A DNA stretch of 63,310 nt, counting the filler, from Folioceros fuciformis (lineage: Eukaryota), in the NCBI GenBank assembly GCA_049999805.1. It is 22 parts of 22 records of this genome, joined end to end, with 100 filler letters (N's around TTAATTAATTAA, not from the genome) between each part and the next. Parts side by side here need not be neighbours in the genome. Positions count along the whole stretch, not along the records: positions 12,125 to 21,050 come from JBNGIO010002811.1; 21 more parts are not named here. One strand, written 5' to 3'. Below are positions 3,262 to 51,789 of this stretch, piece by piece. The position numbers and the translations under genes were made by a program. The notes under the pieces are model-generated. The model was not told where the DNA came from and searched no databases. It saw nothing but the letters and a program-made list of their open reading frames with translations. The stretch's first letter is position 1. Each line of letters opens with the position of its first letter.

Positions 3262-3273
3262 TGGTATCAGAGC
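3262..3273 (+). promoter_or_regulatory. tRNA-iMet primer-binding site
   Basis: TGGTATCAGAGC, 12 nt after the LTR-B end. Confidence 0.75.
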
Positions 3274-4810
3274 CCTAGGCTCTAGGACCATCTCCATGGT
3301 CTCCAGGCATTATGTTTAGATCATGGAGTAGTTCATACATTTAGATGTGTGAATGATAGTTTAGTCAAAAAGCAAACGCTAGAAACAATTCTTGAATGGG
3401 ATCTAAAGGGGTATAAGCAAATGGCATTTAAATGAGAAAGTAGAGGAGAAGGAGCCCTAAACGCTTCTTTTCCCTCCACCGCTTTCTCTACAAGCCATCC
3501 TTTGCAAGTCTCCTCTTCTACACTAGATTCCCAATTCACAAATGGCAAGGAATCATCGCCGCTCTCAAGCTTCATTAAGACAAAGTGTTGAAGATCGGGA
3601 TCGAACTCGTGGACGCCCACATTGCAGCAGCATTGAAAGGAGGATTGGGCATTCTTACTCACCGAGATCACATCGTCTTCTCGGCGACAACTGGCTGGAT
3701 AATCTCTTCCACACGTTGCAAGAACAAGGATGGACTCCACCGGCAAAATGCCATACTGGCAACATCGAATTGACGTCAAGTCACTCTCGATCTTTCTCTA
3801 ATAGTCAACAGGGAAGAACAAGTGCGCAAACGAGAAGAGATGAAACCGTTGATCTCGTCGTCTCTTCTTCAAGCTTGAGTTCGGCACTTCATTCAAGCTC
3901 TCCACGAATGCGTGGAGGACATCAAACAACCACGTGTCCAGGCAATTCACTTGCAAAAGAACAACCACTTAACTCCGTTGCATGGGGAGAAAGCGATGAG
4001 GAATTGCTGCTAATCTCCCCATCTGTACGTCATTCCAAGCAAAGTTTGAGACGCCAAGCGACTTCCTCACGTCCAAGCGCCTCACACTGTGGCTGTCCCC
4101 CCAAGATTGCCTGTGAATTTGCTCCAAATCAAGAGGAATTGGACTCTGGTGTGTTGGTGCAGGATCAGCACGATGTTGCTTCAATTCCTAACTGCATTTC
4201 AGATGTAAGATCGCCCATCCAGGGCGCACGGATCCATGCAGGAGTCGCCCACAATTGCACATCCAAAGCCGAGATTTGGACGGGCGCGCCGGTGGCTGGA
4301 GCGGATGCTACGCTTGTGCCCGTGGGTGGAGGAAACTTGCCCCCGCGCGCGGGGGAGGAGCCGGGATGCATAACCGCCCCCGTTCGCCAACCGGTACAGC
4401 CAGTATCCAACTTAAGTTGGATATCGGTTTGGGCTGAACCGGTATCCAACTTAAGTTGGAAACCGGAACGGGACGGTGCACCCGTTCGCGTGAACGGTGC
4501 ACCCGTTCTTCGAACGGATGCGACCCCCCCGTAATGTGAACGGTCCCCATGATTATGCTCCCAATTTCTCTACTTATAAGGCTTCTGGTGGTGATTTAAA
4601 AACAGAATTTCCTGGCGATTCTTGTGGAGTTCCTCCTCAACCTCGACGGTTCCTTGCTATGCGATGCGTGCCACCTAAGCACGATTTCCAATCAAACACC
4701 TCCAAGTTGANNNNNNNNNNNNNNNNNNNNNNNNNNNNNNNNNNNNNNNNNNNNTTAATTAATTAANNNNNNNNNNNNNNNNNNNNNNNNNNNNNNNNNN
4801 NNNNNNNNNN

Positions 4811-12124: not shown

Positions 12125-12695
12125 GTGGATCCAAAAGAAGAAGCGGGACAAAGAGATGGAGAGGGAAGGGGGAGAAGAGGAAAATGGAGGAAGGGAGGGA
12201 GGAAGAGAGGAAGAAAGGGATGGGAGCGGCCGCAGCCCCTACCCTAGCTAGGGCACGGCCTCCATGGCCGTTTAAGCCAGCCAGACAATCAGCCAACCTG
12301 ACATTGGACCCTGACATACCCCAGATTCCCGTTCCTATGTTCGAACCATTGTTTTATTATTTAACATTATTCTATTATTATTTAATCATTTAATACTATA
12401 TATCTTTAATTAGTAATAAACCAATCACCAAACCTAGATTCAAACTTTTCCGACCCTATGGTCTGGTACCAGACCTAAACTTTCCCAGGTCTGGGACCAA
12501 ACCTATACCCACTCTAGTAACCAAACCAACTAGTTCTTGGTCAATTAACCTATTTAGCACAAAGAAAAATAGGAAAAATAACCAGAAAATAAAAGAAAAT
12601 TAGGGTAAATAAGTAGAAAAAGAAAACCAAACCATACCAGTATTCACCCTTTTTCAACCAAAACAAACCACTACCCCAAACTTTGGAGGTTCACA
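12125..12695 (+). mobile_element. LTR 3' end (family E), ending GGAGGTTCACA
   Basis: 12463-12695 is near-identical to 50694-50926, and the homology stops exactly at TTCACA in both copies. Confidence 0.7.
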
Positions 12696-12739
12696 ATACT
12701 CCATGTCCTGCATGCAACGATTTGTTGAAAGAGGTTATA

Positions 12740-14850
12740 GGGGTCAAGTGTCACTTTGTTTAAGCACACAAGGACTTTGATCGGACCATTTGGGAGCTAC
12801 AAGTCATGGGTGCTTCTTCCATTTCTGCTACTCCTTCAACTTCTCCTCCAAGTGGGCCCCTTGCTCCCTTGCAGGAATCTTGGTTGTGGCTCGAGACATA
12901 GGCTCCCCATCTTCAGGCCCTTTATGAGACCCCCCTTCTGGAATCACATCTGTTTCGACGTCTCCCTAGGCGTTTGCATGACGATGTTCGTCTTGCATTC
13001 AATCTACCATTGGAGCGCCTTGCTTCAAACCCCCAGGACGAGCCATGGACATTGTTCCTCTTTCTTCCCAGGTGGTGCCTTCGTTGTTCCAGGGGCGGCC
13101 TTTATGATCACAGGGAAGTAGCCTCCCACCTTCGTCGATTCCGAGCGGGGGATTGGGAGGCTTTACAGGTGGAGGCCGGCTGTACCGCGAGATCAAGGTT
13201 GGAGTCCGCCAAGTTGGACCAAAATCCTGCGAAGGTGCATCTCAAGAGGTGTCTCTTACTTGATCAAGCCGAAGAGTTAGCTAGAGCCACCAGGGCCCTT
13301 CGGCTAGAGCCGATGGCGTTGCCCCCGAAGGAGACCCGCCCTCCGTGCTTTGGAGAAACCACCTTCGAGACTACTTTGCTCTGGAGGACCCTTCTAGTGG
13401 CTTCTCTGAGCTTTTTTCCTTAGCGGCTGCTGTGGCGCGAGGCAAGACTCCACCTCGGATTGCTCTGGTTTTGGGTGTCAGCAAGTTGCTGGCTTTGGAG
13501 AAACCCACCCCGGGAGTGCACCCCATCGCGGTGGGCGAGGCGTTCTTGAGGCTCATTAGTCACAGCATTGCTCTCCAGCTCAGAGAGCAGCTTCAAGCCC
13601 ACTTCAGCCCCCTACAATTCGAGATTGCTACCTTCGAGGGCTGTGAGGCAGTGGCCTTCGAGGTTAGATCGATCTTGGACCTACATCCAAGTTGGGTTGC
13701 CTTGTAGGTTGACGTGGAGAATGCCTTCAACACCGTCTCTAGGGTGGCTATTTTCAATGAGCTGAAGGTTGCTGGAGGTTGTTTGGAGTCTCTTATCCCC
13801 TTTGTCCGTTCCTTCTATGGTGCCCCGTTTAATCTATACTTTGAACACGGGCCCACGGTAGAGGAGGTCTCAGTGCTCGACTCGACGACAGGTTTGCGTT
13901 AGGGGGATCCCCTATGAGGGGATCTCTTTACTATGGCTCACTTTAGAGCCCTTTCAATTACCACTTCTAAGATAGGGGGTTGTCTCTTCCCATATGTGGC
14001 CGATGACACCCATCTCCTGGGTCCAAAGGGTAAGGTTAAGGAAGCCTTCAAGCTTTTCTCAAAGGAGCTCTTACGATTGGGCTTAAAAGTCAAGATTTCC
14101 AAGTGTAAGATTTGGTCTCTATCTAGTATCACTCCATCTCTACAATTTCTTGAGGGGAACATCGATTCTCCATTGGGGATCCGTGTCATGGGGATCCCTG
14201 TTGGCCCCCCCCCTGACTTTATTCGCTATGGATGTAGCTTTGACGAAGGATTTGGCGCACATTGAGGACCTTCATCAACTTGGGGACCCATAGGTGGCCT
14301 ACGACACCTCTCCACTTGCTTCGCGCGATGCCCCAGGTACCTAATCTGTATAGTGCCTCCATCCTTAGATTTTCTTTCCAAACTGAGGGACTTCGACAAG
14401 CAGGTATTAAACAAATTAGGGGACACTGTTGGCTCGGGTTCATTCAATTCTACTACAGGTGATTTGGCTAGGAGACAGGCATCCCTACCCATTGCTTCGG
14501 GTGGCATTAGGCTACTGGCCATGGAGGCCTTGGCACCGGCTGCTTTTCTTGGTAGTTGGGCACTCTCTGCCCCAGCTTTGGTGACTCGCTTCTCCATCAG
14601 AAACTTGGGCATTTTGGAGGGGTTTGTCACAGGAGTTGATGTGGAGCCATTCTCCCTCTAGGAGTCCCTCAAGAGGGCTCGGCATCTCTTATCCTCACAA
14701 CCTCGATTGGTCATGCCTTCTTTTTCCTCCTTCCCTTTGTGGGCGTATGAAGGGGCTTCAGGTCACCCTCATGGAAAAGAATTATGGGCAAGAGCTACAT
14801 GCCCTCATGCTAGATTCCTTCATTGACAAGCAAGCCCGGGCATAACTTCG
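12740..14850 (+). mobile_element. Decayed non-LTR retrotransposon, CRE-like reverse transcriptase
   Basis: LLALEKP..GVHPIAVGE..RLIS, VDVENAFNTVSR, TGLR*GDPL, YVADDTHL and ARRQASLPIASGG motifs, with several stops and frameshifts. Confidence 0.85.
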
Positions 14851-15122
14851 TTCAACTTGTTCAACTTTCTAATAGCTGCAACATACGTTTGTCTCCCATC
14901 ACCTCTGCAAATGGGCCACACAAAAGACCAGAAATCAAGAACTTCTATCAGCAATATCACCTATGGAGCAAGAGTGTATGCAGGGACCAAGATGTCTTTC
15001 AGGGCACCCAGTGTATGTGCCTCTTTGTGCCGCAAGCTCTTTGAAAAACAAGCAAACTTTTGATCAATTTGGTCATGAGTCTGGCCTACTAGAAGGAACT
15101 ACCCTGCTTTGATCTTCTCAAA

Positions 15123-18100
15123 TGTTCCCATTTCCACTAACATATTCAAATATCCAAATAACAATTGGTTCTTATTTTTCAATAATAAAATGATGAATAA
15201 TAATTATGTTCACAAAGAGTTGTCCTTAAATACTAAACACTAAGTGTTACTTATGAATAACCCTTCTATATATACATCTAACCCTAACCTAATTAACTAG
15301 GTAACTAGTACTCGTGGTTACAATTAACCCTGAGGTCTAACACACCCCCTTAATCATGGAACGTTGGTTAGCCTAAGAACATAGACAGGAGAATGTGATG
15401 GTAGGCTCACTGCTGTCGGTGGTAAATCTGTGCACACTGGCGATCGCAGCCTTCATGTTGATCTGTTAGTAGAAAGAGGAGCAGGAGAAACAAGCCAGGA
15501 GAGGACGAAGATCACCAGCAGCACGTGATCATGGAAATGGGTTATTCTACGCGACACAGCAACAAATCGAGATGGCAGGCTGGGAAGCAAAGCTGTTAGT
15601 GGCAGTGGCGATGAGGCTAGTGAAGAGGCAAGCCTGTGTCCCGGAGGATCAGCTGAGGTAGCTGAAAAAACCAATTGGAGAAAGCTACCAAAGTTCCACT
15701 GTCAAGGTAGATTGAAGTTGGGTGCTAGACGATTAGTTAGGCAAAGGAGCTTCATCCGTCCAGCACCTGGAGCATCCACCTGTAAGTGTCAAGGCAAGTA
15801 GGGAGAGTACTCTACCAGGCCCAGTGCTTCCATTTGAGAAACATGCTTACTAGTCAGTAAGTTCTTTGTAAGCACGTCAGCTGTATTAAGCTCTGTTGAT
15901 TTGTGCTGAATTTTGATCACCTTGCGCTTAAAGGAATGTCTGACGTAGTGATGGTGAATTTCTATGTGTTTAGTGCGCGCATGAAAATGCGGATTCCCAA
16001 CCAAAACGATTGTAGACATGTTGACGCAGAAAATAGTTGTGGGAAGTGCCTGGGGAAAGTCCAAGCCAACTAGAAAAGTGCGCTCCCATTCAGCCTCCTT
16101 GGCTGAATCCATGAGAGCTTTGTATTCAGCCTCCGTGGATGAAAGGGCCATGGAAGTCTGTTTCTTAGAACTCCAGTTGACAGCTGCACCAGATAGCACA
16201 AAGCAATACGCAAAGATGCTCTTGCATTGATCTAGGTTAGTAGCCCAATCAGCATCAGCGTATCCCTCAAGAGTCATGGCATTTTCAATGCCCTGGAAGC
16301 ATAGTCCATGCGTAGACATGCCTTTGAGGTATCGAAGGATCCTTTTACCTGCCATCCAGTGTTCGGGGCCTGGATTCTCAAGGTATTGAGAAATTGCACT
16401 AACAGAGTGCTGAATGTCAGGCCTTGTTCAGCAGCTAATGTAATTGAGACAACCCACAGCGTGCCGGTAAGGGATCTGGCTCATAGCTTCACATTCATAG
16501 TCATCTTGTGGACTCTGTTGAGCAGAGAGTTTAACCCCAACGCTTCTTGGTGTGCTCACAAGTTTAGCATCCTGCAAATTGAAGTGTCAAAGAGTTTCGT
16601 CCATGTACTTGGTCTAGTGCACGACAAGTGCTCTGTTGGGTCTATCTCTTAGCAGCTGAAAGCCAAGGACAAAGGTAATTTGTCCAATGTCTTTCATGTC
16701 ATACTCCTTGTGCAACATACCCTTCACCCAATCCAGTAGCTCTTTGTTGTTGGATGCCAGTATAGCATGATCAACATAAAGTGAAAAAATGACCAAGTAA
16801 CCTCCTTTGGAAAATATGTATATGTTGGCATCAGCTGAGTTCTAAATGAAGCCTATCGACTTGAGGTATTTGTCTATACATTTGTACCATTCACGAGCAC
16901 TTTGGTTCAAGCCGTATAAAGTTTTGTTGAGCCTGCAAACCTAATCTAGATGTTTAGGATCCAGGAAACCCTCAGGTTGATCCATGTATATGTCTTCTTC
17001 AAGCTCTCCATATAGAAAAGCGGTGGAGACGTCCATTTGTTCAAGATCCTAGTCTCGGGCAGTTGCTAGGGCTAACATCATTCTGATTGACTGTGTCTTG
17101 ACAACAAGGCGAAACGTCTCGTTGAAGTCTGCATCTGCGACTTGGGAGAAACCCCGAGCAACCAAACGTGACTGTATCGTGCTATTTCTCCCTGAGCATT
17201 CAGCTTGTGTTTAAATACCCACTTGCAGCTAACCATCTTCCTCCCATCAGGTAAAGGACAAAGCTTCCATGTCCCATTCTTAATCAGCGAATTGTATTCA
17301 TCCTGAATTGAAGGAAGCCAATGATGTTTATCCTGACTAGTTATTGCCTCCTAATATGTACAAGGTTTTGCTAGGTGGATGCTGCTGGTGGAAAGAACTT
17401 CACAAAGTCAAGCACATTGAGGAATCCTGAAATCCTCAAATTCATAGGGCCTTGTGTACCAATTTTCCCTTGATGGACGAGATCTGCTGGGATACCTGTG
17501 CTCTTCAGCAATTGGTTCAGGTTTTGGAGCTGGTTCCTCAGCGGCCTCTAGCTCATTCTGCAACTAGTTGCTTAGCGGGGTCCAGCTCGTCAGCAAGTCG
17601 CACAACAGCATCTTCAGTTTCAAAAGGTGCAGATGGTGTATCTGCATGTCGGCTGTCATTGAGCTCATGTTCCACAATGAGCGGAGAGTTCACCACCGTA
17701 GCATCCGGTATAAGGGTTTCAGAAACATCACCCTAGTTCATGTCATCCATACCCTATCCAAGTGCTGCAGGCAACGGATGTGGTGCATGTGCAGGCACAA
17801 GGATAGACTGTGCTGACGATTGGGCTGCATTTTCACCCCTTGAACCGGTAGCGTGTTGATCAAAACGAGAAGCAAGAGGCGGTTCATATGCAGCATCCTA
17901 AGGGTACTCAGAAGGGGATTCATCAAAATCATTAGTGTCCAAGGGAGAGGATGCTGAAGAAGTGGTAGTGAAAGAAGCAGGAGCCTGCAGTTCCTTGAAG
18001 GTGACACTACGAGCAAATATTGAAGACCTAGAGTGAGGATCATAGAGCTTATAGGCTTTGGTCTCCTCACCATAACCAACAAAGACAAGAGGTCAAGCCC

Positions 18101-18665
18101 TATCCTGAAGCTTCCTGCGCTATTCTTCATGAATATAAGCATAGGCAGGAGAGCCAAATACTCGAAGGTGAAGCAAACTAGGTTTGAGTTTCCAGATCAT
18201 CTCAAAAGGAGCCCGATCGGGAACTGCCGACGTGAGTAGCCGATTGAGAATATAGGTGGCAGTGACGATTGCCTCTGCCCAGTAAGCTTTACTGAGCCCT
18301 GACTAGGCCAACATACTCCGAGTCATGCTGAGGAGTGTCTGATTGCGTTGTTCTGCTACCCCGTTTTGTTGGTGGGTATATGGAACACTAAGCTGGCGGA
18401 TAACACCCTGAGCTGCAAGATACTCATAAAAAACGGTATTCACAAACTCTGTGCCATTATCATATCTTAAGCAGCGAAGGTGAGTCCCAGTCTGCCTTTG
18501 TATCATCGTAAGCCACTCTTGGAATAGCAAGAAAGTGTCTGATTTTCGCTTGAGTGGGTATGTCCAGGAATACCAACTAAAATCGTCGGTAAGTGTGAGG
18601 TAGTAAAGAGAACCTCCCAAGGACTGAACATGAATCTTCCCAGAGATGTCTGTATATACAAGGTC
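15123..18665 (-). mobile_element. Ty1/Copia element 3' part: integrase, RT, RNase H, PPT (15343-15352) and 3' LTR starting at 15342 (left end approximate)
   Basis: TDDFSWYSW, QQNGVAE, SLYVD, GYADADWA, SSTEAEY and HARTKHIEI motifs. AAGGGGGTG|TGTTAG PPT/LTR junction. Confidence 0.9.
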
Positions 18666-19260
18666 TGATGAGAATAGGGTGTTAATACATTAGGTTTCGT
18701 TTGGTGAATGCATTCATAGCTACTATAAGTCTAGGTGCCCGCTCATTTGGGTTGCGTCCTTTATGAAAGGGTGTGTCTATTCACCCTACCTAGCTTAAGT
18801 TCAGTTATTTGTCTATGCTGTATATAATTATTGTTTAATCAATGTAATAATGTAATTGTTTTATAGCAATTGGTCTACACCAATTTCCATATTTTCTCAT
18901 GGTATCAGAGCAAGGTTTAGGGGTAGATTACACTTGTGATAATGCACATTAAAATCTGCACATTCTGATGTGCAGGACAATGTATTTTGTTTATATTTTT
19001 TATTGTTGTTTTCTTTTAAAGAAACTATTTTAAAACATACTTCAAGAAATAGGTTTATAGCTTTCTTGATTTTATATTTAGAAGATTTGCACTTCTAGTA
19101 GGTTGTTCTAGTGTATCCATTGTCAGATTGCACTCTAGCAATATGGCACTAGGCACGCTAGAACAACTGCCAGAATTGGCAAATATTTAATTATAGAATC
19201 ATTCACAAAGTTACAAATGTTTCTTGAAAAATAACAAAATACAAAAGCTTGGCCAAATGA

Positions 19261-19968
19261 ATGGCCAATTTAGTGGACGGGCAGAAATGGCGGCCACGCC
19301 CTGCTGAGCGCATCCAACAGAGGAATGCCCACAGAGTACAACGAATTCAAGAGGGCAGGCTGACGTTTGCAGAATCACTTCACCATCAAACCCTGGATTG
19401 GATTCTTCAAACACAAGACCAGCTTGAACAATCCCGGCTTGTGAGAGATTCCTTCAATAATTTGCTTGAGGCTATCTTCCCACAACAGCGCCATTTGTTG
19501 CTTCCTCCACCACCCAGGAATCAAATTAATCTTCCACCCATTGTAAACGGTAACCCTAGGGGTTTCCTGACAACACACACATCACCACATGTTAGTGTGT
19601 CACAATTAAATGCAAGAATAGAAACACTTCAACAGCATGTTGACGAGTGTTTCCAGAGCATTCGTCATAAGATAGCTGAAGTCAGTGTTGACTTGCAAGA
19701 TTTGAAGGAACGTATAGGACATTTGGACTTCAAGTTGCTTACCTTGCTTAACCCCGTTTTGCTAACACATCCTGCACTCAGAGGTGTTGCTTGCAAACGT
19801 GCTAACAAGAATTATAAGCAACACACTTTTGACGCTCCAAATTCTTGTCCTTCATGCTCTGTTTATGCATTTAACAGATGGGAGATTAGACATCAAAGGA
19901 TAGAAAATAGATTAGCAAATCAACAGGCCAATTTACCTCAAGTTGGTAGATTTGCTCACCCCTTGTAG
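19261..19968 (+). CDS. Extra 235-aa ORF upstream of Copia gag (predicted coiled coil plus CxxC), function unknown
   Basis: Intact ATG-to-TAG ORF, also intact in the second copy (12 aa differences). Heptad-like IETLQQHVD...LQDLKERIGHLD and CPSC. Confidence 0.75.
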   Translation: MANLVDGQKWRPRPAERIQQRNAHRVQRIQEGRLTFAESLHHQTLDWILQTQDQLEQSRLVRDSFNNLLEAIFPQQRHLLLPPPPRNQINLPPIVNGNPRGFLTTHTSPHVSVSQLNARIETLQQHVDECFQSIRHKIAEVSVDLQDLKERIGHLDFKLLTLLNPVLLTHPALRGVACKRANKNYKQHTFDAPNSCPSCSVYAFNRWEIRHQRIENRLANQQANLPQVGRFAHPL

Positions 19969-20121
19969 ATAGGGCTGCTCTTGCAGTTTATCTAAGATGC
20001 AACAGTAGCATCTTACCTCTTCCTAGTCTTTCTCTTCAGTTTGTACCTTGTCTGGATAGGCTACAAAGCTGCATACAGCCATTTCTCCTACAGTTAGGAT
20101 AGAATTACTACATTCTAATAA

Positions 20122-21050
20122 ATGGCAGACACCACTACTGTAGTTGGTGATATTTTTAAGGAGAAAGATAGATTTGGGGGGACTGACTATGACATCTGGG
20201 TCATTCGTATGAAAGGAGCTTTACAAAGTAAGAAGCTATGGAAGATAGCAACAGGAAATGAATCACTCCCAACACCTACTGCATCTTCTGAATCTTCTCC
20301 TTCTTCTGCTGAAAAAAAGATACCAAGAAGCTCGGTATACAAAGGATGAAGCTGCAATGCACCTGTTGAGAAGTGGACTAACCTCTGACATGCTGCGACA
20401 GACTTCTGGCTGCAATACATCTTTTGAGATATGGACCAGATTACATGAGCTGTACGCAGGTGTTAATACCACAAGTCAGATGATAGCCCTTCGCAACATT
20501 TAAAATTGCAAAATGAGAGAAGGGGAGACAGTTGAAAAACATGTTGGGCATTTTAGATCACTTGTTTCTAAGTTAGAAAGTGCTTCACAGGAGGCTCTAT
20601 TTGATGAGCTGCTTACCTTGTATTTCATGATGTCTCTCCCTGACTCATGGTCACACTTTGTGACACCTTACAATGCTTCTCAGCTACAGGCTTCAAAGAT
20701 AGCTAAGGCTGCAGGTGTCACAATACCACAGACAACATTTTTTGAGTTAGTGGGAGCTCTTCTTCAGGAAGAAGCTACAAGAGGACAAAACAGGCGTGCT
20801 GGCAAGCAGCAGGATCTTTACACCACAAATAAAAACAAGGGCGCGAGGCCCAACTTCAAAGGTAAACAGAATACCTTTCAAGGTGCTGGTGCCTCACGGC
20901 GAGGGACAACACAGAAGAAACCCAAGAAGTCTGGAAAATGCCACTGGTGCTAGATTCTAAGACATTGGGAAAATGAATGTCGAAAGAAGCAGGCCGGAGT
21001 ACCTCGCAAGGAGGGCAACTCTACTTCTGAGACACATGTTGTGGTGAAAA
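20122..21050 (+). pseudogene. Copia gag with a frameshift and stops
   Basis: An extra A at ~20318 relative to the 54755 copy, and stops at ~20501 and ~20951. CCHC knuckle CHWC..GH....C. Confidence 0.9.
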
Positions 21051-21150
21051 NNNNNNNNNNNNNNNNNNNNNNNNNNNNNNNNNNNNNNNNNNNNTTAATT
21101 AATTAANNNNNNNNNNNNNNNNNNNNNNNNNNNNNNNNNNNNNNNNNNNN

Positions 21151-23471
21151 GAGTGTGTACTGCTTCAACTCCATTCTGCAATGACTCAACTTGATCTTGT
21201 ATCACGTCGAGGAGAGGTTAGGAAAAAAGATTGATTAATCTTTTTTATAATAAAATAATTTCATCCTTTTGTGTGAAACCCAGTATGAGAATTTGATAAC
21301 TTTTTACCAGGAATTGCAATTGAAACAAGCTATGATAGAGGAGAACCAAGTGAAAACGTCTGGAGACATGGCTTCTGAGATGGTTAACCATGTAACAAAA
21401 TTGTCACACCATATGAAACAGTTAGAAAATGTATTGGATAATGATAGTAATATGATGGGACAAGCTAGCAAGTTTTTTCCAACAGCAGCAAGGTGTGCAT
21501 ATAACTATCATGAAGAAAAGAAGGAGGAACCTGAGATTGAGAACTCCGAGAATCTATTTATCTCTTCATTCCCAAAAGATGTATACATGAATGATGTACA
21601 TGCAGCGGCTGAAATTCAAAGGAATCAAATTGTTGGGTTCATGAAAAACTATGGGGTTTATGGGCAGGACTCTTTAGGCATAGAGAGTCAGTTTAGACCT
21701 TTGGATAGGAATAGCTCTAATTCAAATAGCTTTGGCCATGAAGTACATGTACCTTGGTCCAAAGACAAAGGTACATTGGCTTCACCATCCAAATGGAAGC
21801 CATGCTACATGCAAAATGGCCCGCAAAATTTACATGCAAGGCGCAAGGATTGGGGCCATTGGAAGAGATGGGTAGCTTGGAAATGGAGATGGGCTGCTGC
21901 TGCAGCTAGAGCAGATCAACTAGTGAAACAGTTGTCAAGTTGGAATGTGTTGAAGAAACACCTACAAACAGAAAGTGAACAATACAATCTTAGAATGAGA
22001 AAGCAACATTCTAAACTATCAGACAAACCTTATCATGCTCAAAACATTGAAAGGGAGCAAAACTTGGTAAAAATAGTGGAGTCTGCATGGAACACTTTTG
22101 CTAAGGATGCCAAGATTGATCCCGACTCTAATGTGTTGAAATCCACCTCCAATAAGTTATTAGCTTCCTTGCCTTGGTGGATTCGTAGAGTTGGTGATAG
22201 GAAAAGGATGGAACGTTGTTTTCTCCATTGGCGGCGACTTACTCGCAAGAGAATGAGAGAAAAGAAAAATTTGTCCATCAAAAATGGATGTACCAAAATG
22301 GTCAAAGTAGAGCCTACTTATAACGATCCTAAGGATCCTTATGTTCCATATTATGTGAAGGTTGGTAATGCTGAAGCTTTAGTTGCATTGAAGCAAATGA
22401 CAAAACCCTACCAAGTGCTCAAGTTTTATCAAAAGGGTGGACCTCCGAACCAGCTGCACTATGGAAAGCTTCCTAATATGCATATCACTTCTAGAATGGG
22501 AAAGGATTCAGAGCTACTCTATGGACCGAGTAGGGTGGCAAGAAGTGATATCGTATCAATGCATGGCCTTTGTCCCACATTTACATCTAGAGCTTTGCGA
22601 ATGCTTCAGGTTAGCAGAGAGTTCCACAGTAACTGACAATACTCGTTGAATAGTTTCCACATGAGTCGTGTTATGATAATCATTCCTAATTGCTCGCAAA
22701 CCCATTTGCAGACATCTTTGCAACAAGAGCTTGAAAAATTTGAAAGCATGCTGCAAAATGAAATCAAGGCCCTTCAAAATCATGTAGCGATACAGATATC
22801 TTTCAACAAAATGACCACATGTCTCAATAAGTTTATGGTCACATATCTTTTCTCTTGCATGCTTCTATCACATGATTTGAGTTCCTTTTGTTGTCTTGGT
22901 GCAGATAAGAATGGAGGAAGCTATGAGCAGTTATACTGGTGGCAAAAATGAGTGGCATGTATTCCGGGGTAGTATAGATAGGAGGGGTTGTATTAAAAAT
23001 TATTTAAACTCTCTTTGGCATGTAAGCAATATTTTAGATTTAGCATTAAACAAAGCTAAGAAGCAACTGATGAACAGGGGGAAACGAGTAGATCAATTAA
23101 GCTTAAGGGCATCTTTTCCTTCAGCTTTTGTTTCACCTTGCCAGAATGGTTGGAAGAGAAAGGTTGGGGCCAAGAGTTGCGTGGCCCAATTTTCCAAAAC
23201 CTCTGGGCTTAGGACAGAGCCTATCTCGAGTTGCGTATGTTGTGCAGAACACCAACCCAACAATGTTTGTCTATGGAATAAGAGTAGGATCACAAAAGAT
23301 CGTGATTTTGTTGGATCGCGCTATGCTGCACTACTGAAATCTGAATTATCTCAAACTCATGATAAACAAGATGACCCATTGATTGAGGTTGATAATTTTG
23401 GGGATGTACTTCCTAAAAGGGCACCTTCCGCTGCCTTATATAAAAGAAAACCTTTCTGGAAATTTCATTGA
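21151..23471 (+). CDS. Host gene of unknown function, 5'-truncated; exons 21151-21216, 21311-22609, 22712-22783, 22905-23471 (~667 aa)
   Basis: Three phase-0 GT-AG introns join four open frames without stops. Coiled-coil-like and Trp/Arg-rich segments; no transposon motifs seen. Confidence 0.75.
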
Positions 23472-25366: not shown

Positions 25367-26526
25367 TGACAAACCTGAAGGGTCCGATGCCGACCACAAT
25401 CGACATCTCCCTGCACATACGCAACGCAACGAGTGATTCCAAGTTGAATTTGATAGTTGAAGCGCAGTTGAAGAGCAGCACGATAGAGTAGCATAGTTAG
25501 TTAAGTATAAACGGTACGAGATTTGAAGCGTTAAGTCGTTACCTATCTGCCGACCTAACCACCACGAGGTCAACAGGCACCAAGGACGTGTCTGTCAGAG
25601 TCTGCATACACAAGAGACTGCTGGCAGAGCGCTAATGTACAATCGATTCTAATCTGATGCGATTCCCTACTATTTGTCTTGGTATCAGAGCAGCACGTGC
25701 AGATGCTGAAGCGCACGGGATCAGGGCGCTAATGGAGGCGGAGATGCGACAGCAATCGGGTGTTTTTCTTGCTCTTGCGGGAGTTGGTTTGAATGGAGCC
25801 CTACATCGATTGTCTGAGTCACAATCTACAATTCAGACGAAGAGAGCCCAGAAGGAACCAATCCAGTCGCAACCTGCAGACCATCAACTTCGGTGTCACC
25901 AATCAAAACAGGGAGGTTGCACATTTTGAGGGTTCAGGTGCGACAAGCAAGAAATATACCCAACTGCCATCTCTTTCTCCGCGTCCAGTCTTGTGCCAGC
26001 ATTGCAGAGTCTGTGGGCATTCACCACCTGTTCAGGTCAGGCACGGCAGACGTCATTCAAGATCTTTTGTCCAAAATCAACACAAGGGTCCACAATACTC
26101 AAAAGAGCACAAAGCGAAACACAAGAGAGAAAATATTGTTGTGAGCAAACTTCAGGTGTTAATTCACTCTGTGTCTAAGATTGCAGCACAGCTGATGAGT
26201 TTAGATACTCACCTTCAAGCACTCGATACAAAGTTCCTCTTGATCCTTAAATCACACCTACTTGCAAACAAATTAGCATTGTCAGCACTTTCTGTCCCAC
26301 CTATAGGTCAGATTTATCAGCAACCCACAAAATGTCTGGAGTGCATTGTTCACCGACACGGGCAGCAGACCAAAACAGCTAAGATGGCAGAACAAGTGAA
26401 ATTGGAAATGCTAACAATGTTGGGCACATGAGTTAATGTGGTCACCCAATTTTACCTCCTTCCTTGGGAGTCCCAGGCTTGAAATTCCAGTGAGACTGGA
26501 TGTCGAAGAGACAATTGCAGCCTTAA
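25367..26526 (+). mobile_element. 5' end of an LTR element (probably Copia): LTR (~25367-25679), PBS 25680-25691 and extra ORF
   Basis: TGACAAA...TTTGTC(T) imperfect termini, then TGGTATCAGAGC. The following ORF resembles the 19261 ORF. LTR start is uncertain. Confidence 0.6.
25793..26431 (+). CDS. Extra 212-aa ORF after the PBS, a distant homologue of the 19261/53893 ORF
   Basis: LDTHLQALDTKFLLILKSHLLANKLAL..YQQ..CLECIV aligns with LKERIGHLDFKLLTLLKPVLLTNPAL..YKQ..CPSCSV. Confidence 0.65.
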   Translation: MEPYIDCLSHNLQFRRREPRRNQSSRNLQTINFGVTNQNREVAHFEGSGATSKKYTQLPSLSPRPVLCQHCRVCGHSPPVQVRHGRRHSRSFVQNQHKGPQYSKEHKAKHKRENIVVSKLQVLIHSVSKIAAQLMSLDTHLQALDTKFLLILKSHLLANKLALSALSVPPIGQIYQQPTKCLECIVHRHGQQTKTAKMAEQVKLEMLTMLGT

Positions 26527-32419: not shown

Positions 32420-32742
32420 CTTCAGGAGGACATAACGGCCGCAATTCCGCTTGTCTGCCTTAGATGTACATACTAACAGATTTGTCTTGAAGAGGCAAAC
32501 ATTTTGGTATGTTTTGCGCTTACTTTTGAGCTGATTCCAGAGACTGATCTTAGATTTTCAGTGTGGATCAGATCACTGCAAGAGGAGAACATAACGGCCG
32601 CAATTCTGCTTGGCTCCCTTTGATCTACAAACCAACAGATTTGTCTTGTAGAGGCAAACATTTTGGTATGCTTTGTGCTCACTTTTAAGCTGATTTCAGG
32701 GACTGATCTTAGATTTTCATTGCGGATCAGATCACTGCAGGA
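32420..32742. repeat. ~160-bp direct duplication
   Basis: AACAGATTTGTCTTG.AGAGGCAAACATTTTGGTATG...GGATCAGATCACTGCA occurs twice (32475 and 32634). Confidence 0.8.
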
Positions 32743-33660
32743 AGAGGGACATGGCTGATCATGGATGCTTTGGGGAGGGGTAGATTTCTTGTTCCCTCAG
32801 TATTCCAAGAAAGTTGTGTTCCTTTGCTTTCTAATCACAGTTACCCAGCAAGCCTAGGGAATTGAGATTTTCCACGGGTAGGATTTTCCCAAACTAGGAT
32901 TATCTGGATAGGGAGTAGCTGAGCTTTGCTCACACTCATTCAGACTGTGGGGGGCAGCTGTAAGCTACGACCAGACGCGGCATGAAGGGAGGCCACCATC
33001 CGATATTTGGGAGGAGCTAACCCTCATTTCTTGGTGACATTTGTCGAGAGGCATGCGTGGTTTGTTGGAACCACATGTTTAGGGGCTCGTGTTGCCTTTG
33101 AGAACAGGGGTTTGATTTGGAGGCCAGCAACAGCCAGTAGAAGCCTGAAGGTACTGTGGGTACAGCTGAAGCAGTGTATGGCGTCCCAGCGAGAGTCACT
33201 TCCCTAGGCCCGGTGTTCTCAATTGCAGCACAGCACCTCACTGTTTTTGCCAAACACCAGCTGTAGGTGTAACAGGGGTGCATGGGGTATGCAACCAGAT
33301 CAGCAAGAGGCCAGCCTACGTTATCGATTGAGGAGTTGAGACATTCCTATCAGGGCATCACCGGAGCGTGCACAACGGAGGAGAAGATGGGCAGCTCGAC
33401 GACGCCAACTTGCAAGTGAAGAAGACTTGAGAGAGGACTTGGAACCAGCAACATCCGTTGGGCAACCCAGCTGGTCACCCCTCTTAGACTTGGGCAAGAT
33501 TGTTGTGCTAACGAGCTCAAATTTAGGGGGTCAGCTAGTTTGTGACGAGGAACCTGAACANNNNNNNNNNNNNNNNNNNNNNNNNNNNNNNNNNNNNNNN
33601 NNNNTTAATTAATTAANNNNNNNNNNNNNNNNNNNNNNNNNNNNNNNNNNNNNNNNNNNN

Positions 33661-33891: not shown

Positions 33892-36655
33892 GAGTCTGAC
33901 TCTGTGTGAGCTTTACACCGGTAGCAAGCGGGGTAGCTGACCCATTCGCATTTTCCAGGTTGAATTTCTTTAAGCTGTCTCGTACATACTTGTGTTGGCA
34001 AATGGTGAACTTCCTAATACTTCTCTCTTTGCTTATCTCAATCCCTAGACACCAAGTGAGCTCTCCTAGCTCAGACATCTCGAATTCTTTCCTGAGGAGT
34101 ACTTTGACCTTTTGAAACAGGCTACACCTACCCTTGGTTGCAGCCAAAACCAAGTCGTCAACGTATAGCAGCAGGATAAAAAATGCTTCTCCTTCACTCA
34201 TGACATACAGACCAGGGTCTGTAGTACCCTGCTTGAAGCCCAGCTTTTCAGGTAAGCGTCTATACGCTGGTTCCAAGCCCATGGGCTTTGCTTTAGCCCG
34301 TACAGGGTTTTTACCAACTTGCATACTAAGTGCTCCGTTCTAGGTTTGATGTATCCCTCCGGCTGCTCCATATACAACTCTTCTTCAAGTTTGCCGTGCA
34401 GGAAGGCCGTTTTCACGTCCATCTGCTCCAAATCAAGGTCCAGGTGTGCTGCTAGTGCCAGCACCATCCTCAAAGTTGTAAACTTTACAACTGGACCAAA
34501 GGTATCATTAAAATCCACTCCTGGAATCTGAGAGAATCCTCGGGCAACCAGCTGTACCTTATACCTTTCTATGCTACCGTCAGCTTTCATTTTTCTCTTG
34601 AAGACCCACTTGCACGAAATCGGCTTTTGTCCTTTCAGTAACTCAACCAGCACCCAAGTTCCATTCTGAATTATTGATGCATATTCATCGTTGACAGCTC
34701 TCTTCCACTGTTTGGCTTCTGGCCCTGAGTACGCTTGTGTCAGTGATACAGGTTCAGTCGAGTCTGTTGTGGCTGTCAGTAACGCTTGGACAAAGGCATT
34801 CGAGGGCTGGGAATCTTGCAGAGTTTTTGCATTGTCACTTGACTGTTCATATGCTAATTGTACACCCATTGAGAACTGCTCAGAGGTAACTGAAATGTCT
34901 GCAACTCTAGCCCTTGACCCTTTCACTTTTGCTTTAGACTTGTTCGTACGCCAGTCCTCCATCTCCAACGGGGGTTCCTTCCAGGGAATGTTCCGACTTC
35001 TGAGATTGTAACCACTTCTTGGTTTAACTGCAGGAGCTTCCTCCACTCTGGGTATTTCACCATCAAGCATATCCTCATCTGCCTGTTGAGCCAAGCCAGA
35101 GTTGTCCACAGTGTTGCTGTCAACATTAGCCTCTTCATCTTCAAGTGCAAGAGTTCCTTCAGCCTGCTCGAAGTAGGATACTTCTGAATCTGCTGTTTCA
35201 GCATAACCTCCTGCAGGAGACCACTCGTGGGCATCTTCATCCTCGAAGTCGAGCTGATCACCTACCCCATCATCAAAACCTGCACTGGAATCAGGTAATG
35301 CAGTGCCCGGTGGTTTCAGCAGACCTCTCTCATCAAAAACTACGCTCCTTGCATGCCTAACAGCCCGAGACATAGGGTCATACAACTTATATGCTTTTAT
35401 ACCATCTGTATAGCCAATGAAGACTAACTTCTGGGCCCTATCTTGCAGCTTAGTTTTCCTCTTCGGTTTGGGAACAAACGCGTACGCTGGTGAACCAAAA
35501 ATGCACAGACGCTGAACAGCTGGCTTCCGTCCCCACCAGGCCTCAAACGGTGTAGTACCAGGTAGCACTCTCGTGGGCAGTCTAATCACCAAGTAGTTTG
35601 CAGTATTTATGGCCAGAGGCCTAGTAACTTCGAGGCAAACGTGCTTGCTTAAGCAGAGCCCTAGCTGTCTCCTGCAGAAGCTGGTTCTTCTTCTCAGCAA
35701 CCCCATTGAGTTGTGCAGTGTATGGTACAGTCAGCTGTCGTTGGATGCCAAGACCCCGACAATAAGCTTGAAATTCTCCAGAGGTATATTCCCCACCATT
35801 GTCGGATCGAAGGCATCGTAAGCTACGGCCATGATGACGCTCTCCCAGCAACAAATAATCCTTGAAGTGCTGCAAAGTCTCACTTTTGTGTTTGAGAATG
35901 TACAGCATACAATAACGAGTGCAGTCATCGATAAAGGTTAAGAAGAAGGAGCCTCCACCAATAGACGCTACCGAGATGGGACCACAGATGTCCGAATGAA
36001 CTAGGTCCAACGGGGCAGTAGCCCGATGTGCTCTTGACTTGTCAAACGGTAACTCATGGTGCTTTCCATATATGCATGCTTCGCACAGAGACATATCCCC
36101 CACTTGATCTGGATTCCCATCTGAATACAATGTGCTTTTTGACATGGCCAGAAGCTTGCCACCATGAGGATGTCCACAACGTAAGTGCCAGACAGTCGCA
36201 ACTTCCTCCGGAGACAAGTTACCCCCAATGCCAGCAACATGCAGCTCAGGTAACTTGCTGCCTGCTATGCTTAGCTGATAAATGTCATTAACAGGGTACC
36301 CTTCTGCAACAGCTACACGCGGATCCGTACTTTGGACTATCATGCCCTTATCCTCTCTAAACAAAACTTGCATTGGCTGATCTGAAGTTAGTTTACGTAC
36401 TGACAGCAGATTTTTCATGACTGCAGGTACATACAGAACATCATCCAGCTCCAAGCTTCGGCCATGATGCAGCTATAACCTGACTTTGCCAGTTCCAATG
36501 ATAGGTAATGTGCTTTCATCTCCCAACATCACTGAATATGCTTCACTGTACGGTGCATACTCACTAAAGCAAGCCTTATTGTGGCATATGTGCGCAGAGG
36601 CACCAGAATCAACGAACCAGTATGAGGTTCGAGAGCAAGAAGTGGTAAGGCACAC
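33892..36655 (-). mobile_element. Ty1/Copia pol (protease, integrase, RT) with frameshifts
   Basis: WFVDSGASAH, HSDICGP, LRSDNGGEY, QMDVKTAFLHG and LLYVDDL motifs. Confidence 0.95.
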
Positions 36656-37070
36656 TATGGAGGCAAAACCCCGGCACTGATTGCCGACGGGTTCCACCTT
36701 TAGTGGCCACACTTATCCCACTGTCGTTGAGACATTGGGTTTCGTTCCCACAAAGGAGCGATGGGGTTCCTTGCTGCTGTGGATGGAGGGTCGGACTTGA
36801 TCAACTCAGTGATGGATTCGAGGGCTCCCCTCCAGCTCCGATCAGGCGTAGGACAGGCCTCGCTGTCCGGCGGTCAGCTGCACCTGTCTCGGTGCCCACA
36901 AACTCACTCCAGTCACTACAACGACTCTAACCTCTTAGATCTGTGACTTCCCTCACACACTTCACTCACTCTCTCACTCTAGCACCGACACCAGCAACTA
37001 CCAGCAACCAGCAACGACACCACTACCTTCTACACTTCCCTACGGACTCCTCCTACCCGGCAAGAGTCAC
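36656..37070 (-). mobile_element. LTR family B terminus inserted just upstream of a Copia protease
   Basis: Matches 2790-3249 and 40582 onward. Confidence 0.85.
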
Positions 37071-38394: not shown

Positions 38395-40581
38395 TTGCAG
38401 CTATGATAAGTCTCAGTCCATTGCATTAAGTTTATGTTTGAAAACCCATTTGCAGCTCACAGCTTTATGGCCAGTAGGTACCGGGCATAACTCCCAAGTC
38501 TCATTCTTCATGAGTGATTTATACTCATCTTGGATAGATGGAATCCAGTGTTGTTTGTTTTTACCATTTATGGCCTCTTGATAAGTTCTGGGCTCTACAG
38601 GATGTTCAACAGCAAAGGACAGGATTACATATGAGAAGGCTGACATTCTAGCTGACTTAGAAAGCCTAAAGTCTATGGATTCATATGGCTTCTCATGCCA
38701 CTAGTCTCTAGGGTTGCGAGTCCTGTTGGGGTATCTTCTCTCCTCAAGGGCAGGAGCTGAGATCTTAGGAAGATCTTCAATAATAGAGACATCCTTATCA
38801 ACATCAGAAAATTCAGACTCAGCAAGTTGGTTTTCAAGAACAGGAGCGGGATCCTCTGGACCTATGCCCTCGACATGTATGAGTTCCTCAATGTCTTAAG
38901 TAGCAGCAAGGGGTTATGTATCATCATCCAACGGTTGAGCAGGTTGTACAAGGGCCTGAAACTGAAACGTGTACAGGATGTACAGGCTGTCCAGCCTGTG
39001 TGGATGACGAAGTGCCACCCCCTGAACCACGAGCTGCAAAAAGAGGAGCACCCCATGAAGACGGAACGACATAGATATCTTGAGGATACTCAGAGGCTGC
39101 AGTGTCAAAGTCATCAACAAGTGAATCATCAAGGACTGTAGAACTGTCTGCAAAGTGAGATTGAGCTGGCTTGACAAGCTCCTTGAAGGTAACACTATGG
39201 GCAAAAATAGAGGATCTCGAAAAAGGATCATATAATTTGTAAGCCTTCGTTTCTTCTCCATAACCAACAAAAATAAAAGGCTTAGCTCTGTCCTGAAGCT
39301 TCTTTTGCAATTTTGCAAGTACATGTGCGTAGGCTGGAGAGCCAAATAGACGCAAGTTGAGAAGGCTAGGACGACGTTGCCATATCACTTCGAAAGGAGT
39401 TCGGCCTTCAACTGCACTTGTAAGAAGACGTTGAGTATGTATGTAGCAGTCACGACGGCCTCAACCCAGTAAGCCTTATCCAATCCTGACCATTGAAGCA
39501 TACTGCTGGTCATGCCATTCCATTAAAGTCTGATTCCGTCTCTCAGCAATACCGTTCTGTTGCTGAGTGTAGGGAATGATAAGTTGCTGAGTGATGCCTT
39601 GGTCAGACAAATACTGGTCAAAGAGGTTATTGACAAACTCAATGCCGTTATCGCACCTCAAGCAACAAAGGAGTCGACTTGTCTGTTGTTGTACTATGGT
39701 GAGCCACTCTTGAAATACAGGAAAAGTATTTGATTTCCGCTTTAGGGGAAGTCCAAGAGTGCCTACTATAATCGTCCATAAGTGTGAGGTAATATTGGGA
39801 GCCTCCCAAAGAAGGAACATGAATTTTTCCTGATATGTTTGTGTGTACAAGGTCTAGAACATGAGAGGTACAATGCGCAACGGCAGACGGGAAGGGAATC
39901 TCTTTCTGCTTGGCGATGATACAAGAATCACATAAGGGAAGTTCCTTGAAACACTTAGGCAGTGGTTCTCTGTAACATTCCAAATTAGACATCTTTATAA
40001 GCTTATCTTTATTGGCATGTCCCAAACGGGCGTGCCACAATTGTGCTAAAGCCGATTGTGTCCTTGCAACCACAAAAGCACTCTTAGCGGGCTGACAACA
40101 TATGTTGAGCCTATACAGGTCATGCACCAAGAGACCTCGAGCGACGGAATCATGGGCACCTTTATGTGAAAGAAAACAACCAGCAGAGGTGAATGATAGA
40201 TCATACTATTGTAGCTTCATCAATTGACTGACAGAGAGAAGATGCTTGGCCATGCTAGGAACGTAGAGTACGTTATCCAGGCGAAGGGCAGAGCCATCTT
40301 CAAGTTGAAAAGTGCAAGATCCTGTGCCAAGGATCTTCAAACCCATTTGGGTAAGCTCATCTCCCAACAAGACCTTTTCATTAGCGTGTGTTGGAGTGAA
40401 ATCACTGAGCAAGTGTTGATTGTGGCATATATGGGATGTGGCACCTGAGTTTGGTTTAGGGTCTGGTTCACAGACTATGGTGGAATGGCAGACGGTCATT
40501 ACCACGGGCTGCTTGCTGGAAGATGAGGCTTGTGAAGACCTGTCCTTGGAAATTGAGTGTGCCTCAACCACTTTGTGGGTC
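38395..40581 (-). mobile_element. Decayed Ty1/Copia pol (protease, integrase, start of RT)
   Basis: SGATSHICH, LWHARLGH, QQNGIAERRN, LRLFGSPAY and EPRTYQEA..SCKWVFKHK motifs. Confidence 0.92.
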
Positions 40582-41753
40582 TGTGGAGGCAAAACCCCGG
40601 GCACTGATTGCCAACGGGTTCCACCTTTAGTGGCCACACTTATCCCACTGTCGTTGAGACATTGGGTTTCGTTCCCACGAAGGAGCGATGGGATTCCTTG
40701 CTGCTGTGGATGGAGGGTCGGACTTGATCGACTCGATGATGGATTCGAGGGCTCCCCTCCAGCTCCAATCAGGCGTAGGACAGGCCTCGCTGTCCGACGG
40801 TCAGCTGCACCTCTCTCGGTGCCCACAAACTCACTCCAGTCACTACAACGACCCTAACCTCTTAGATCTGCGACTTCCCTCACTCACTCTCTCACTCCAA
40901 CACCAACACTAGCAATTAACAATGACACCACTACCTTCTACACTTCCCTATTGACTCCTCCTATCCGGCAAGAGTCACTAGACTAACCCCAAAGAAAAGA
41001 AAGAAGGGAACACACTCCCCTCTTGGATATCTCCCCCCCTACAACCTTACCAGATGCCATGAAACATGGCCGGCCTACAGCACTTGTCCAAATAAGGAAC
41101 AAGAGTGGACCGGTCAAGAGAAAGACACGTCCTTTACAATCAAGAGCTAGGGGCAAGCCCCTACACCCTGGTCATTACACCTTGTGATCCTACCAGACAC
41201 TATACAACCGGCAACACGCTGCCCGCGATCCTGCCAGACACTATACAGCCGGCAACACACGGCTTGCGATCCTACCAGACGTTGCACAGCCGGCAACACA
41301 CTACAGGTCCTAAACCAAGCAGGGATAAACCACAAGAGCTCATGAAGAGAGGACCTCCAAGAGCTCATGAAGAGATAGACTGACTCCCAAAGTGAATGAC
41401 TCCCTCCTCCTACAGGCTCACTTGATCTTATAGGAGCCTCTCTCTCTCTCTGACTTTACCTCTCTCTAACTTGAGAAATATTATTTTAATAGGACCACTA
41501 GCCTAGCCAGCTATCACTAGCCACTTATTTAGACTTCTAGCACATCCTGCCACCAATGAGCTCCTGGCCCTACCACCACAAGGATCTACCACCTCTTAGA
41601 CTATCCTGAGACTTCGGAGGATGTCTGATCTTCAAAGATATGCGGACGCCGCCTCTTCCTTGCTGGATGGCCGCCCGCTAAGTCTTCCCCTGCAACTATT
41701 CACCCTTGGTGGCTGAGCCAGCCTCCAGGGGAGGAGTATGAGAAGTGGGAAAG
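40582..41753 (-). mobile_element. Long LTR family B with three 41-bp tandem repeats (41186-41302) and a TATA-like CCTATAAG (~41430, minus strand)
   Basis: Collinear with 47748-49000. Confidence 0.85.
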
Positions 41754-47271: not shown

Positions 47272-47747
47272 TGTGGGGAAAAATATCACACCCGTGGGTG
47301 CTGCAAGGTCCACACAAACCCTCTTTGTCGTTACAATTTAGGGATTCGATCCCAAAGGAATGATCCCAAAGGAACTCTCACCGACAGCACTTCTAGTTAG
47401 AATTGCTAACTTGGAAGCAAATGCATTGAAAATGATCTATTAGCAAATTGATTAGGTGGATACAAAGGTCTTAAGTAGCAGTTTAGGAGGGGTGTGCCCT
47501 TTGACTAACTTGCCAGTTAACTAACTACACTCATAACTATGTCCAGTTAGGCTAACCAACGTAATACAGATTCACGTGGTCTGCCTAATATTCCAACTCT
47601 CCCTCTCAGACACGTGTTGGTTGCTATTAGAAGAGAGCTCCTAAGTACAAACGGAGATCACTACTGTTGATACCAAGCTTTAAACATTGTCAAAACGGCT
47701 ATCACCTAAAGTCAGTAGTCCTCACTCTTGTAGAGCCCATAGTCTAC
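47272..47747 (-). mobile_element. LTR terminus (family D) inserted in a Copia RT
   Basis: The RT frame breaks at TGTGGGG, and the shared terminal motif is present. Confidence 0.65.
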
Positions 47748-50691: not shown

Positions 50692-50926
50692 GCCTGGTAC
50701 CGAACCTAAACCTTCCCAGCTCTGGGACCAAACCTATACCCACTCTTATAACCAAACCAACTATTTCCTGGTCAATTAACCTAATTAGCACAAAGAAAAA
50801 TAGGAAAAATAACCAGAAAATCAAGGAAAATTAGGAAAAATAAGTTGAAAAGGAAAACCAAACCATACCACTATTAACCCTTTTTCAACCAAAACAAACT
50901 ACTACCCCAAACTTTGGAGGTTCACA
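50692..50926 (+). mobile_element. LTR 3' end (family E)
   Basis: Near-identical to 12463-12695. Confidence 0.75.
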
Positions 50927-51620: not shown

Positions 51621-51789
51621 CCCCCCTTCACCCCGGAACAAAGTTGAGAACACACTAGGCAAGGGGTGTGCTTGATAGGTAAAGGCTTGGTGTCATATAC
51701 CATATGATAGAGGCATGTAGAAAGTCCTGTCAAACAATCTAAACCAAACAGTTGTAATCCGTAACCCTATGATGCCTTGTTCCACTTTA

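Follow-up and report, generated by a model that had tools for sequence, protein, structure and literature searches.

A long terminal repeat (LTR) retrotransposon of Folioceros fuciformis carries a separate open reading frame (ORF) of 235 codons between its primer-binding site (PBS) and a Copia-type gag, and the question raised by this locus is whether that frame is a gene of the element, a frame that is open by chance or youth, or a fragment of host sequence. The locus was analysed in a stretch of 63,310 nucleotides (nt) from assembly GCA_049999805.1, hereafter the window, in which the element is represented by two copies, A and B. We consider it probable, at roughly 0.6, that the ORF is a genuine, selectively maintained 5' sense accessory gene of a plant-type Ty1/copia lineage, and neither a chance frame nor a captured host fragment; that it is a real protein gene, encoded by the transposable element and under selection, seems to us at least as probable. 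The evidence comes from the length of the frame compared with shuffled sequence, and from a protein-level match at the same position in a second element of the window, element C.

An open frame between the primer-binding site and gag

The window consists of unrelated short contigs set in series. Forty-two runs of 44 N, paired around the 12-letter TTAATTAATTAA, form 21 linkers (N44-TTAATTAATTAA-N44; e.g., 21051-21150), each with a stop in all frames, and the pieces between them are roughly 1-9 kb long. Neighbours in the window are not neighbours in the genome, and a reading of adjacency in the window as genomic adjacency was dropped because adjoining pieces are unrelated in sequence. Copy A lies on the piece 12125-21050 and copy B on the piece 50692-55730; both copies end inside gag at contig ends (21050 and 55730), and pol and the 3' LTR fall outside the sequence covered.

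Copies A and B align over 18664-21050 and 53297-55682, respectively, with 97.0% identity across 2388 columns (Table 1). A preliminary description of this DNA had given the order of parts as LTR, PBS, AT-rich leader, 235-amino-acid (aa) ORF, 153-nt gap and gag, repeated at 53299-55730, and this layout proved exact. The same description had the ORF at full length and gag disrupted in both copies, and this was borne out as well: each ORF encodes 235 aa, the two proteins being 95% identical, and the gag of copy A carries one frame shift and two in-frame stops, that of copy B a single in-frame stop. The ORF, present in both of the two window copies, is the first long cistron past the PBS and lies between the PBS and gag.

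The motif of the PBS, TGGTATCAGAGC, is one that we take to be complementary to the 3' end of the initiator tRNA-Met (tRNA-iMet). It occurs at five sites in the window, where 0.32 would be expected by chance. Its assignment to tRNA-iMet agrees with PMC6317226. Gag was matched by Pfam to PF14223 (Retrotran_gag_2, 'gag-polypeptide of LTR copia-type') with an E value of 1.8e-22 and 80.1 bits against a cut-off of 27, and its CCHC knuckle gave a weak match (E 0.032). An LTR followed directly by a tRNA-iMet PBS and a gag of Copia type are both features of a Ty1/copia element. The ORF is separate, lies between the PBS and gag on the strand of gag, and is unrelated to gag, with no similarity in a Smith-Waterman comparison of the two (score 37, equal to background); it is in these respects a 5' sense additional ORF.

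When the PBS-to-gag stretch was shuffled 2000 times, no shuffle contained an ORF of at least 235 codons, and the longest ORF obtained was 163 codons. Because no shuffle reached 235 codons, these data indicate that the stretch is coding, or was coding until recently.

Other copies were examined in Logan contigs of sequencing runs, of which X1 and X2 are DNA runs with one organism label and X3 carries a second species label; the best-matching sample may be the source of the window assembly itself. In X1, 237 contigs matched the element, 22 of them at 99% identity or more, 58 at 95-99%, 60 at 90-95% and 97 under 90%, and this number and these identity classes indicate that the family is abundant and includes old copies. 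In X1 and X2, short contigs extend over all 30 bins, those of the ORF among them, and X3 covers part of the ORF, since its nine pieces include the ORF parts 19434-19653 and 19681-19894. A contig of 323 nt found in both X1 and X2 spans the end of the ORF to the start of gag (19896-20217) with three mismatches. Among the pieces listed in detail (28 of 502), three diverged ORF pieces, of 245, 214 and 220 nt, showed 45, 38 and 12 mismatches and contained 0, 0 and 9 gap letters, respectively; two leader pieces showed 18 and 8 mismatches and contained 6 and 2 gap letters, and gag pieces had 0-2 gap letters with 30-58 mismatches. This gap pattern would fit coding constraint on the ORF, as anecdotal evidence. 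Run X6, which is only guessed to be RNA, yielded three short pieces under 90% identity, from other elements.

A match at the same position in a second element

Element C is located on a contig other than those of copies A and B and looks unrelated to them. The protein of the 212-aa ORF behind its PBS is basic in its N-terminal half and contains a heptad stretch, with a CxxC in the C-terminal part. No ORF of at least 212 codons appeared in 2000 shuffles of element C, the longest being 193 codons. In Smith-Waterman comparisons with the 212-aa protein (BLOSUM62, gap 11/1), copy A scored 64 and copy B scored 77. The score of copy A corresponded to a z of ~4.6-5.3, and between 1 and 5 of 3000 shuffles equalled it, depending on the test; the score of copy B corresponded to a z of 7.0-7.6 and was reached by none of 3000 shuffles, including those in which residues were shuffled only within blocks of 30 or 15 residues, a procedure that keeps local composition, for example that of the coiled coil. 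When all 90 stop-to-stop ORFs of at least 100 aa in the window were compared, the 235-aa and 212-aa ORFs were reciprocal best non-self matches (77 and 64 vs 44 and 38 for the next best). Furthermore, only one of the 36 pairs of reading frames stood out, namely the pair formed by both open frames (+1/+1), which scored 77 against 21-41 for copy B and 64 against 21-42 for copy A. No DNA similarity was detected between the ORF and element C (local score 23 vs a shuffle mean of 20.8 +/- 2.2).

The module shared by the two proteins comprises ~77 residues, with the heptad coiled coil, a Leu-rich stretch (LD.K.L..L...LL) and the pattern P..C..C.V. At six listed ORF sites, copy A departs from nearly all matched contigs and copy B has the letter of those contigs; it is also copy B that is the closer match to element C, as would be expected under true homology. 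Conservation of the ORF in more diverged relatives was one of the points on which the preliminary description had made its proposal depend, and the outcome is in favour of that proposal, as a distant protein-level homologue was found in element C at the same position. On these sequence comparisons, although not by BLASTP (E 0.47), the ORF is conserved as a protein in a second element. One related Copia element of the window, whose gag is 33% identical (E 3e-25), lacks an ORF of this kind in its leader of 515 nt, and the ORF is therefore lineage-specific and not a generic leader sequence.

Table 1. Features of copies A and B, of element C and of two further loci in the window
Feature	Position	Strand	Details
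5' LTR, copy A	18666-18899	+	~234 base pairs (bp), TG...CA; A/B homology starts at 18664/53297; CA directly before PBS
PBS, copy A (TGGTATCAGAGC)	18900-18911	+	exact match
Leader, copy A	18912-19260	+	349 nt, AT-rich, 30% GC, upstream ATGs
Extra ORF, copy A	19261-19968	+	235 aa; basic N-terminus, Pro-rich linker, coiled coil ~113-169, C196-x2-C199
Spacer, copy A	19969-20121	+	153 nt, pyrimidine-rich, five in-frame stops, several YAG sites
Copia-type gag, copy A	20122-21050	+	frame shift at ~20312; in-frame stops 20501-20503 and 20951-20953; contig end
5' LTR, copy B	53299-53531	+	aligned to 18666-18899
PBS, copy B	53532-53543	+	one mismatch
Extra ORF, copy B	53893-54600	+	235 aa; 21 substitutions vs copy A, no indel
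Gag, copy B	54755-55730	+	PF14223, CCHC knuckle; one in-frame stop 55220-55222; contig end
PBS, element C	25680-25691	+	exact tRNA-iMet match; second, unrelated-looking element
ORF, element C	25793-26431	+	212 aa, starts 101 nt past PBS; residues 115-187 resemble residues 126-202 of 235-aa ORF
434-aa ORF	21332-22636	+	no Pfam match; upstream of element C, same contig
Ty3/gypsy-type integrase (Integrase_H2C2, rve)	56520-57779	+	C-terminal PHD finger PF00628, E 2.2e-12, at chromodomain position of chromoviruses

Several other repeats were found in the window. Copy A is inserted into, or adjoins, an antisense fragment of another Copia integrase (17738-18666, minus strand), which has 70% DNA identity to 39177-39855. 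A third kind of element, at 3262-4534 on the plus strand, has an exact tRNA-iMet PBS at 3262 behind a 460-bp LTR, and this LTR recurs at 36654-37070, 40581-41032 and 47746-48217. The GC-rich ORF of this element (330 aa, 3542-4534, plus strand) matches no Pfam family and does not resemble the 235-aa ORF; it may be another non-gag first ORF, or the element may be non-autonomous. Lastly, a 159-nt unit is present at 32424-32746 in two tandem copies that are 88-89% identical.

Selection, youth or capture

Relatives of the ORF were searched for in protein, domain and structure libraries. Pfam assigned the ORF to no family (best E 0.018, 15 bits against a cut-off of 90), and the plant mobile domain, Athila ORF-1 (PF03078) and Transposase_28 were all absent from its Pfam matches at E values up to 1. 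With phmmer, 0 matches to the ORF were obtained among 1.84 billion protein representatives. A word-indexed search of 5.8 billion clusters returned 267 candidates for the ORF, none of which scored, and 4290 candidates for the three-sequence alignment, again with none; a word-indexed search with the N-terminus of gag returned 330 candidates, none of which was confirmed. PDB sequences gave seven insignificant matches (E 0.15-0.9), of which four were to C2H2 fingers and fell on residues 182-218, and the ESM Atlas gave no usable match to either the 235-aa or the 212-aa ORF. Two scans of metagenome contigs gave 72 and 459 pattern matches, none of them confirmed, and viral contigs gave none. Rfam had 0 matches in the whole window.

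Several observations weigh against a selectively maintained gene, beginning with this absence of a relative from every protein, domain and structure library searched. The substitutions between copies A and B amount to 21 in 708 nt of the ORF, 10 in 361 nt of the leader, 8 in 236 nt of the LTR and 25 in 929 nt of gag, or ~3% throughout. In the ORF, the codon differences comprise 8 synonymous and 12 non-synonymous changes, with 6/6/9 substitutions at the three codon positions; this is close to neutral, as post-insertion decay would give. Seventeen ORF variants listed from the contigs, a selected subset, fall 6/5/6 over the codon positions, and none of them is a stop. All four lesions are located in gag and none in the ORF, a distribution with p ~0.11 given the lengths. 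The earlier argument that the ORF stayed intact while gag was broken therefore carries little weight, given the uniform divergence and this p value, and copies A and B alone cannot decide whether the ORF is under selection. The similarity to element C is confined to one 77-residue stretch that includes the coiled coil, as measured by Smith-Waterman shuffle statistics only; composition-adjusted BLASTP of the ORF against element C gave only an E value of 0.47, tblastn gave no cross match between them at E 10 or lower, and the N-terminal halves of the two proteins are not alignable (z below 0). The contig of element C ends 95 nt past the ORF stop, before any gag, and element C is only a putative autonomous Copia. 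The AF2 model of the protein is weak overall, with a mean predicted local distance difference test (pLDDT) score of 53.7. Finally, seven ATGs lie between 18855 and 19260, and these leader ATGs would hamper cap-dependent translation of the ORF unless the AT-rich leader were removed.

Uniform divergence across LTR, leader, ORF and gag, the codon differences and lesion counts between the copies, the weak or missing matches to element C in BLASTP, tblastn and the N-terminal halves, and the lack of any relative among the 1.84 billion representatives all speak for an ORF that is open only through youth, that is, a decaying or functionless stretch of leader whose likeness to the 212-aa ORF arises artefactually from composition or from the coiled coil. 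However, a frame of a length that no shuffle produced points to a stretch that was coding at least until recently, and the match of copy B to element C was not reproduced by shuffles within 15-residue blocks, is limited to the two open frames among all frame pairs, and is reciprocally the best in the window. Openness through youth is consequently regarded as unlikely. Capture of a host gene, or of part of one, by transduction, followed by passive spread with the element, is quite improbable. Transduction by LTR retrotransposons is documented (PMC7264820), and the GC content of the ORF is 44% vs 30% for the leader; however, one would expect to find relatives of a conserved host gene, and no homologue turned up in any library searched. 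In addition, a distant homologue that occupies the same position in a second element without DNA similarity argues for long residence in the element lineage, and captured genes are usually present in one or few copies, according to PMC7264820, whereas the family described here is abundant.

It was also considered that the ORF might be the N-terminal part of a once longer gag, cut off by mutation in both copies. The ORF and the gag ATG do share one frame in copy A, where they are 861 nt apart, but five in-frame stops lie between them in the spacer, and the spacer of copy B is 154 nt, so that the frame relation of ORF and gag differs from that of copy A. Moreover, gag has an ATG of its own, followed by the usual DUF4219-like and PF14223 start, and the ORF does not resemble gag; an origin of the ORF as a severed part of gag is thus extremely improbable. 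Taken together, a maintained accessory gene of the element is the reading that we prefer.

Predicted protein, gag expression and upstream frames in other elements

The product of such an accessory gene most likely represents a new protein family, characterised by a conserved module of coiled coil and CxxC, as judged from the two protein sequences. The features that had been named for the protein at the outset, namely a basic N-terminus, a Pro-rich linker, a heptad coiled coil and a C-terminal CxxC, are all present. The protein is basic (K+R 29-31 vs D+E 20) and contains 12-13 His and 23 Gln. In the 235-aa and 212-aa proteins alike, all a and d heptad positions of one 35-residue segment are hydrophobic, and AF2, run with three sequences, placed a long helix at residues 113-169 (pLDDT 74-81) and other helices at 14-30, 36-51, 55-72, 74-80 and 197-224. 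A prediction of self-association for residues 105-215 in two copies gave a score of 0.12 vs a mark of 0.32, a value that favours neither outcome. The Cys and His residues of copy A are arranged as C196-x2-C199-x11-H211, with no second His in range, and those of the 212-aa ORF as C-x2-C-x2-H-x-H. A C2H2 zinc finger was rejected for this region, as the pattern C-x2-4-C-x12-H-x3-5-H is not present and the zinc-finger profile matches in PDB are insignificant (E 0.15-0.78); a small Cys/His metal site in the protein is possible.

From these features, the protein is predicted to be helical, would probably self-associate, and would probably bind nucleic acid through its Arg-rich N-terminus and the small Cys/His motif. 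Its action would in that case be in trans, on the RNA or the particle of the element itself, in the manner of an RNA chaperone or of a packaging or export factor. We propose a nucleic-acid-binding oligomer only tentatively, from composition and architecture only. Coiled-coil oligomerisation combined with a basic nucleic-acid-binding part is found in LINE-1 ORF1p and in Caulimoviridae, where a small protein is encoded ahead of the capsid-polymerase gene. The analogy is one of working only, not of sequence or fold, and the PDB profile matches are insignificant.

A long first cistron upstream of gag raises the matter of how gag is translated. Nine ATGs intervene between the start of the ORF and that of gag and rule out leaky scanning to gag, and readthrough from the ORF into gag was ruled out by the five in-frame stops of the copy A spacer. 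Because of these ATGs and stops, we infer that gag-pol requires a spliced or subgenomic RNA, reinitiation or internal entry. Gag-pol would most likely be made from a spliced or subgenomic RNA from which the ORF is removed, with candidate 3' sites in the pyrimidine-rich spacer, and the unspliced RNA would serve as ORF mRNA and genome. Expression of gag by splicing is a possibility that we advance with reserve, and expression by reinitiation or internal entry appears doubtful. AG|GT occurs at 18915, 19053 and 19102, and the site at 18915 is kept in both copies; in the spacer, TCTTTCTCTTCAG, which ends at 20039, is kept in copy B. The splice sites suggested in the preliminary description fared unequally: the donor AAG|GTTTAG is retained in both copies but is presumably a poor match to the plant consensus, and the acceptor CCTACAG at ~20093 (AG at 20092-20093) is lost in copy B.

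A more elaborate scheme would resemble the expression of complex retroviruses, in which a 5' splice site just past the PBS would be used with alternative 3' sites to produce one mRNA for the ORF and another for gag-pol, with the ORF protein as a Rev-like adaptor. Its Arg-rich N-terminal helix, its coiled coil and the stretch LD.K.L..L...LL would, in such a scheme, serve to export or protect unspliced genomic RNA. Architectural support comes from the AG|GT at 18915 and TCTTTCTCTTCAG, both kept in the two copies, from the pyrimidine-rich spacer and from the nine ATGs; the scheme is nevertheless considered very unlikely. If true, the scheme would give Ty1/copia elements their first regulatory protein of this kind.

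Additional ORFs of LTR retrotransposons occur upstream or downstream of gag-pol and in either sense, with the 3' position being the most frequent (PMC7264820). In the survey of PMC6317226, extra ORFs of at least 250 codons were recorded in 582 Ty1/copia and 3372 Ty3/gypsy elements, those of Copia falling into 45 similarity groups, and a 5' forward category was included; the only Copia extra ORF discussed in the passages considered here is the SIRE eORF-3'F ('env-like'), which lies downstream of pol. Beyond the counts of PMC6317226, and its supplementary lineage tables aside, no described Copia 5' ORF was found in the literature. The preliminary description had stated that an ORF upstream of gag is known for Ogre and is not a standard Copia feature. 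Ogre is not the sole precedent, since there are also the 582 Ty1/copia elements with extra ORFs (PMC6317226), the sunflower Tekay 13-2 5'aORF (PMC11728184), whose protein combines a nuclear localisation signal (NLS) with three helices and a Pro-rich disordered part and which 500 of 523 elements carry, and ORF0 of rice Retrosat2, a 5' additional ORF (PMC3485330).

The ORFs of Tekay and Retrosat2, as they are described, resemble the ORF reported here in several respects: a sense ORF lies between the 5' LTR/PBS and gag and has no known domain, the protein is basic or NLS-like and alpha-helical with Pro-rich disordered parts, and divergence between related families is fast. The ORFs of Tekay and Retrosat2 are found in most copies of a family, and the ORF reported here is found in both window copies. 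However, these elements are Ty3/gypsy, in contrast to the Copia-type gag (PF14223) of the present element, the comparison being one of descriptions only, and their proteins are larger (~400 aa in sunflower). Ogre ORF1 and Athila ORF-1 are likewise located upstream of gag on the same strand, but belong to very large elements of Ty3/gypsy (Tat/Athila), and the plant mobile domain, Transposase_28 and Athila ORF-1 domains reported for that group in PMC6317226 are not among the Pfam matches of the ORF. The Ty1/copia extra ORFs of Neumann et al. 2019 (PMC6317226), chiefly the SIRE eORF-3'F, share the Copia host and are heterogeneous proteins, mostly without known domains; they differ in that the SIRE case lies downstream of pol and in the survey cut-off of 250 codons, which is not a biological criterion and under which both the 235- and the 212-codon ORF fall.

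Additional ORFs occur widely among plant LTR retrotransposons, and a function is known for almost none of them. Genes of this kind escape surveys that set their threshold at 250 codons. If the reading of the ORF as an accessory gene is true, its 235-aa product is a candidate small enough for functional work on RNA binding, oligomerisation or counter-silencing, and the translation of gag-pol from behind a long first cistron becomes a concrete question open to testing. If the ORF is indeed kept as a protein in two deeply diverged Copia-type elements, Copia lineages, too, evolve upstream accessory genes.

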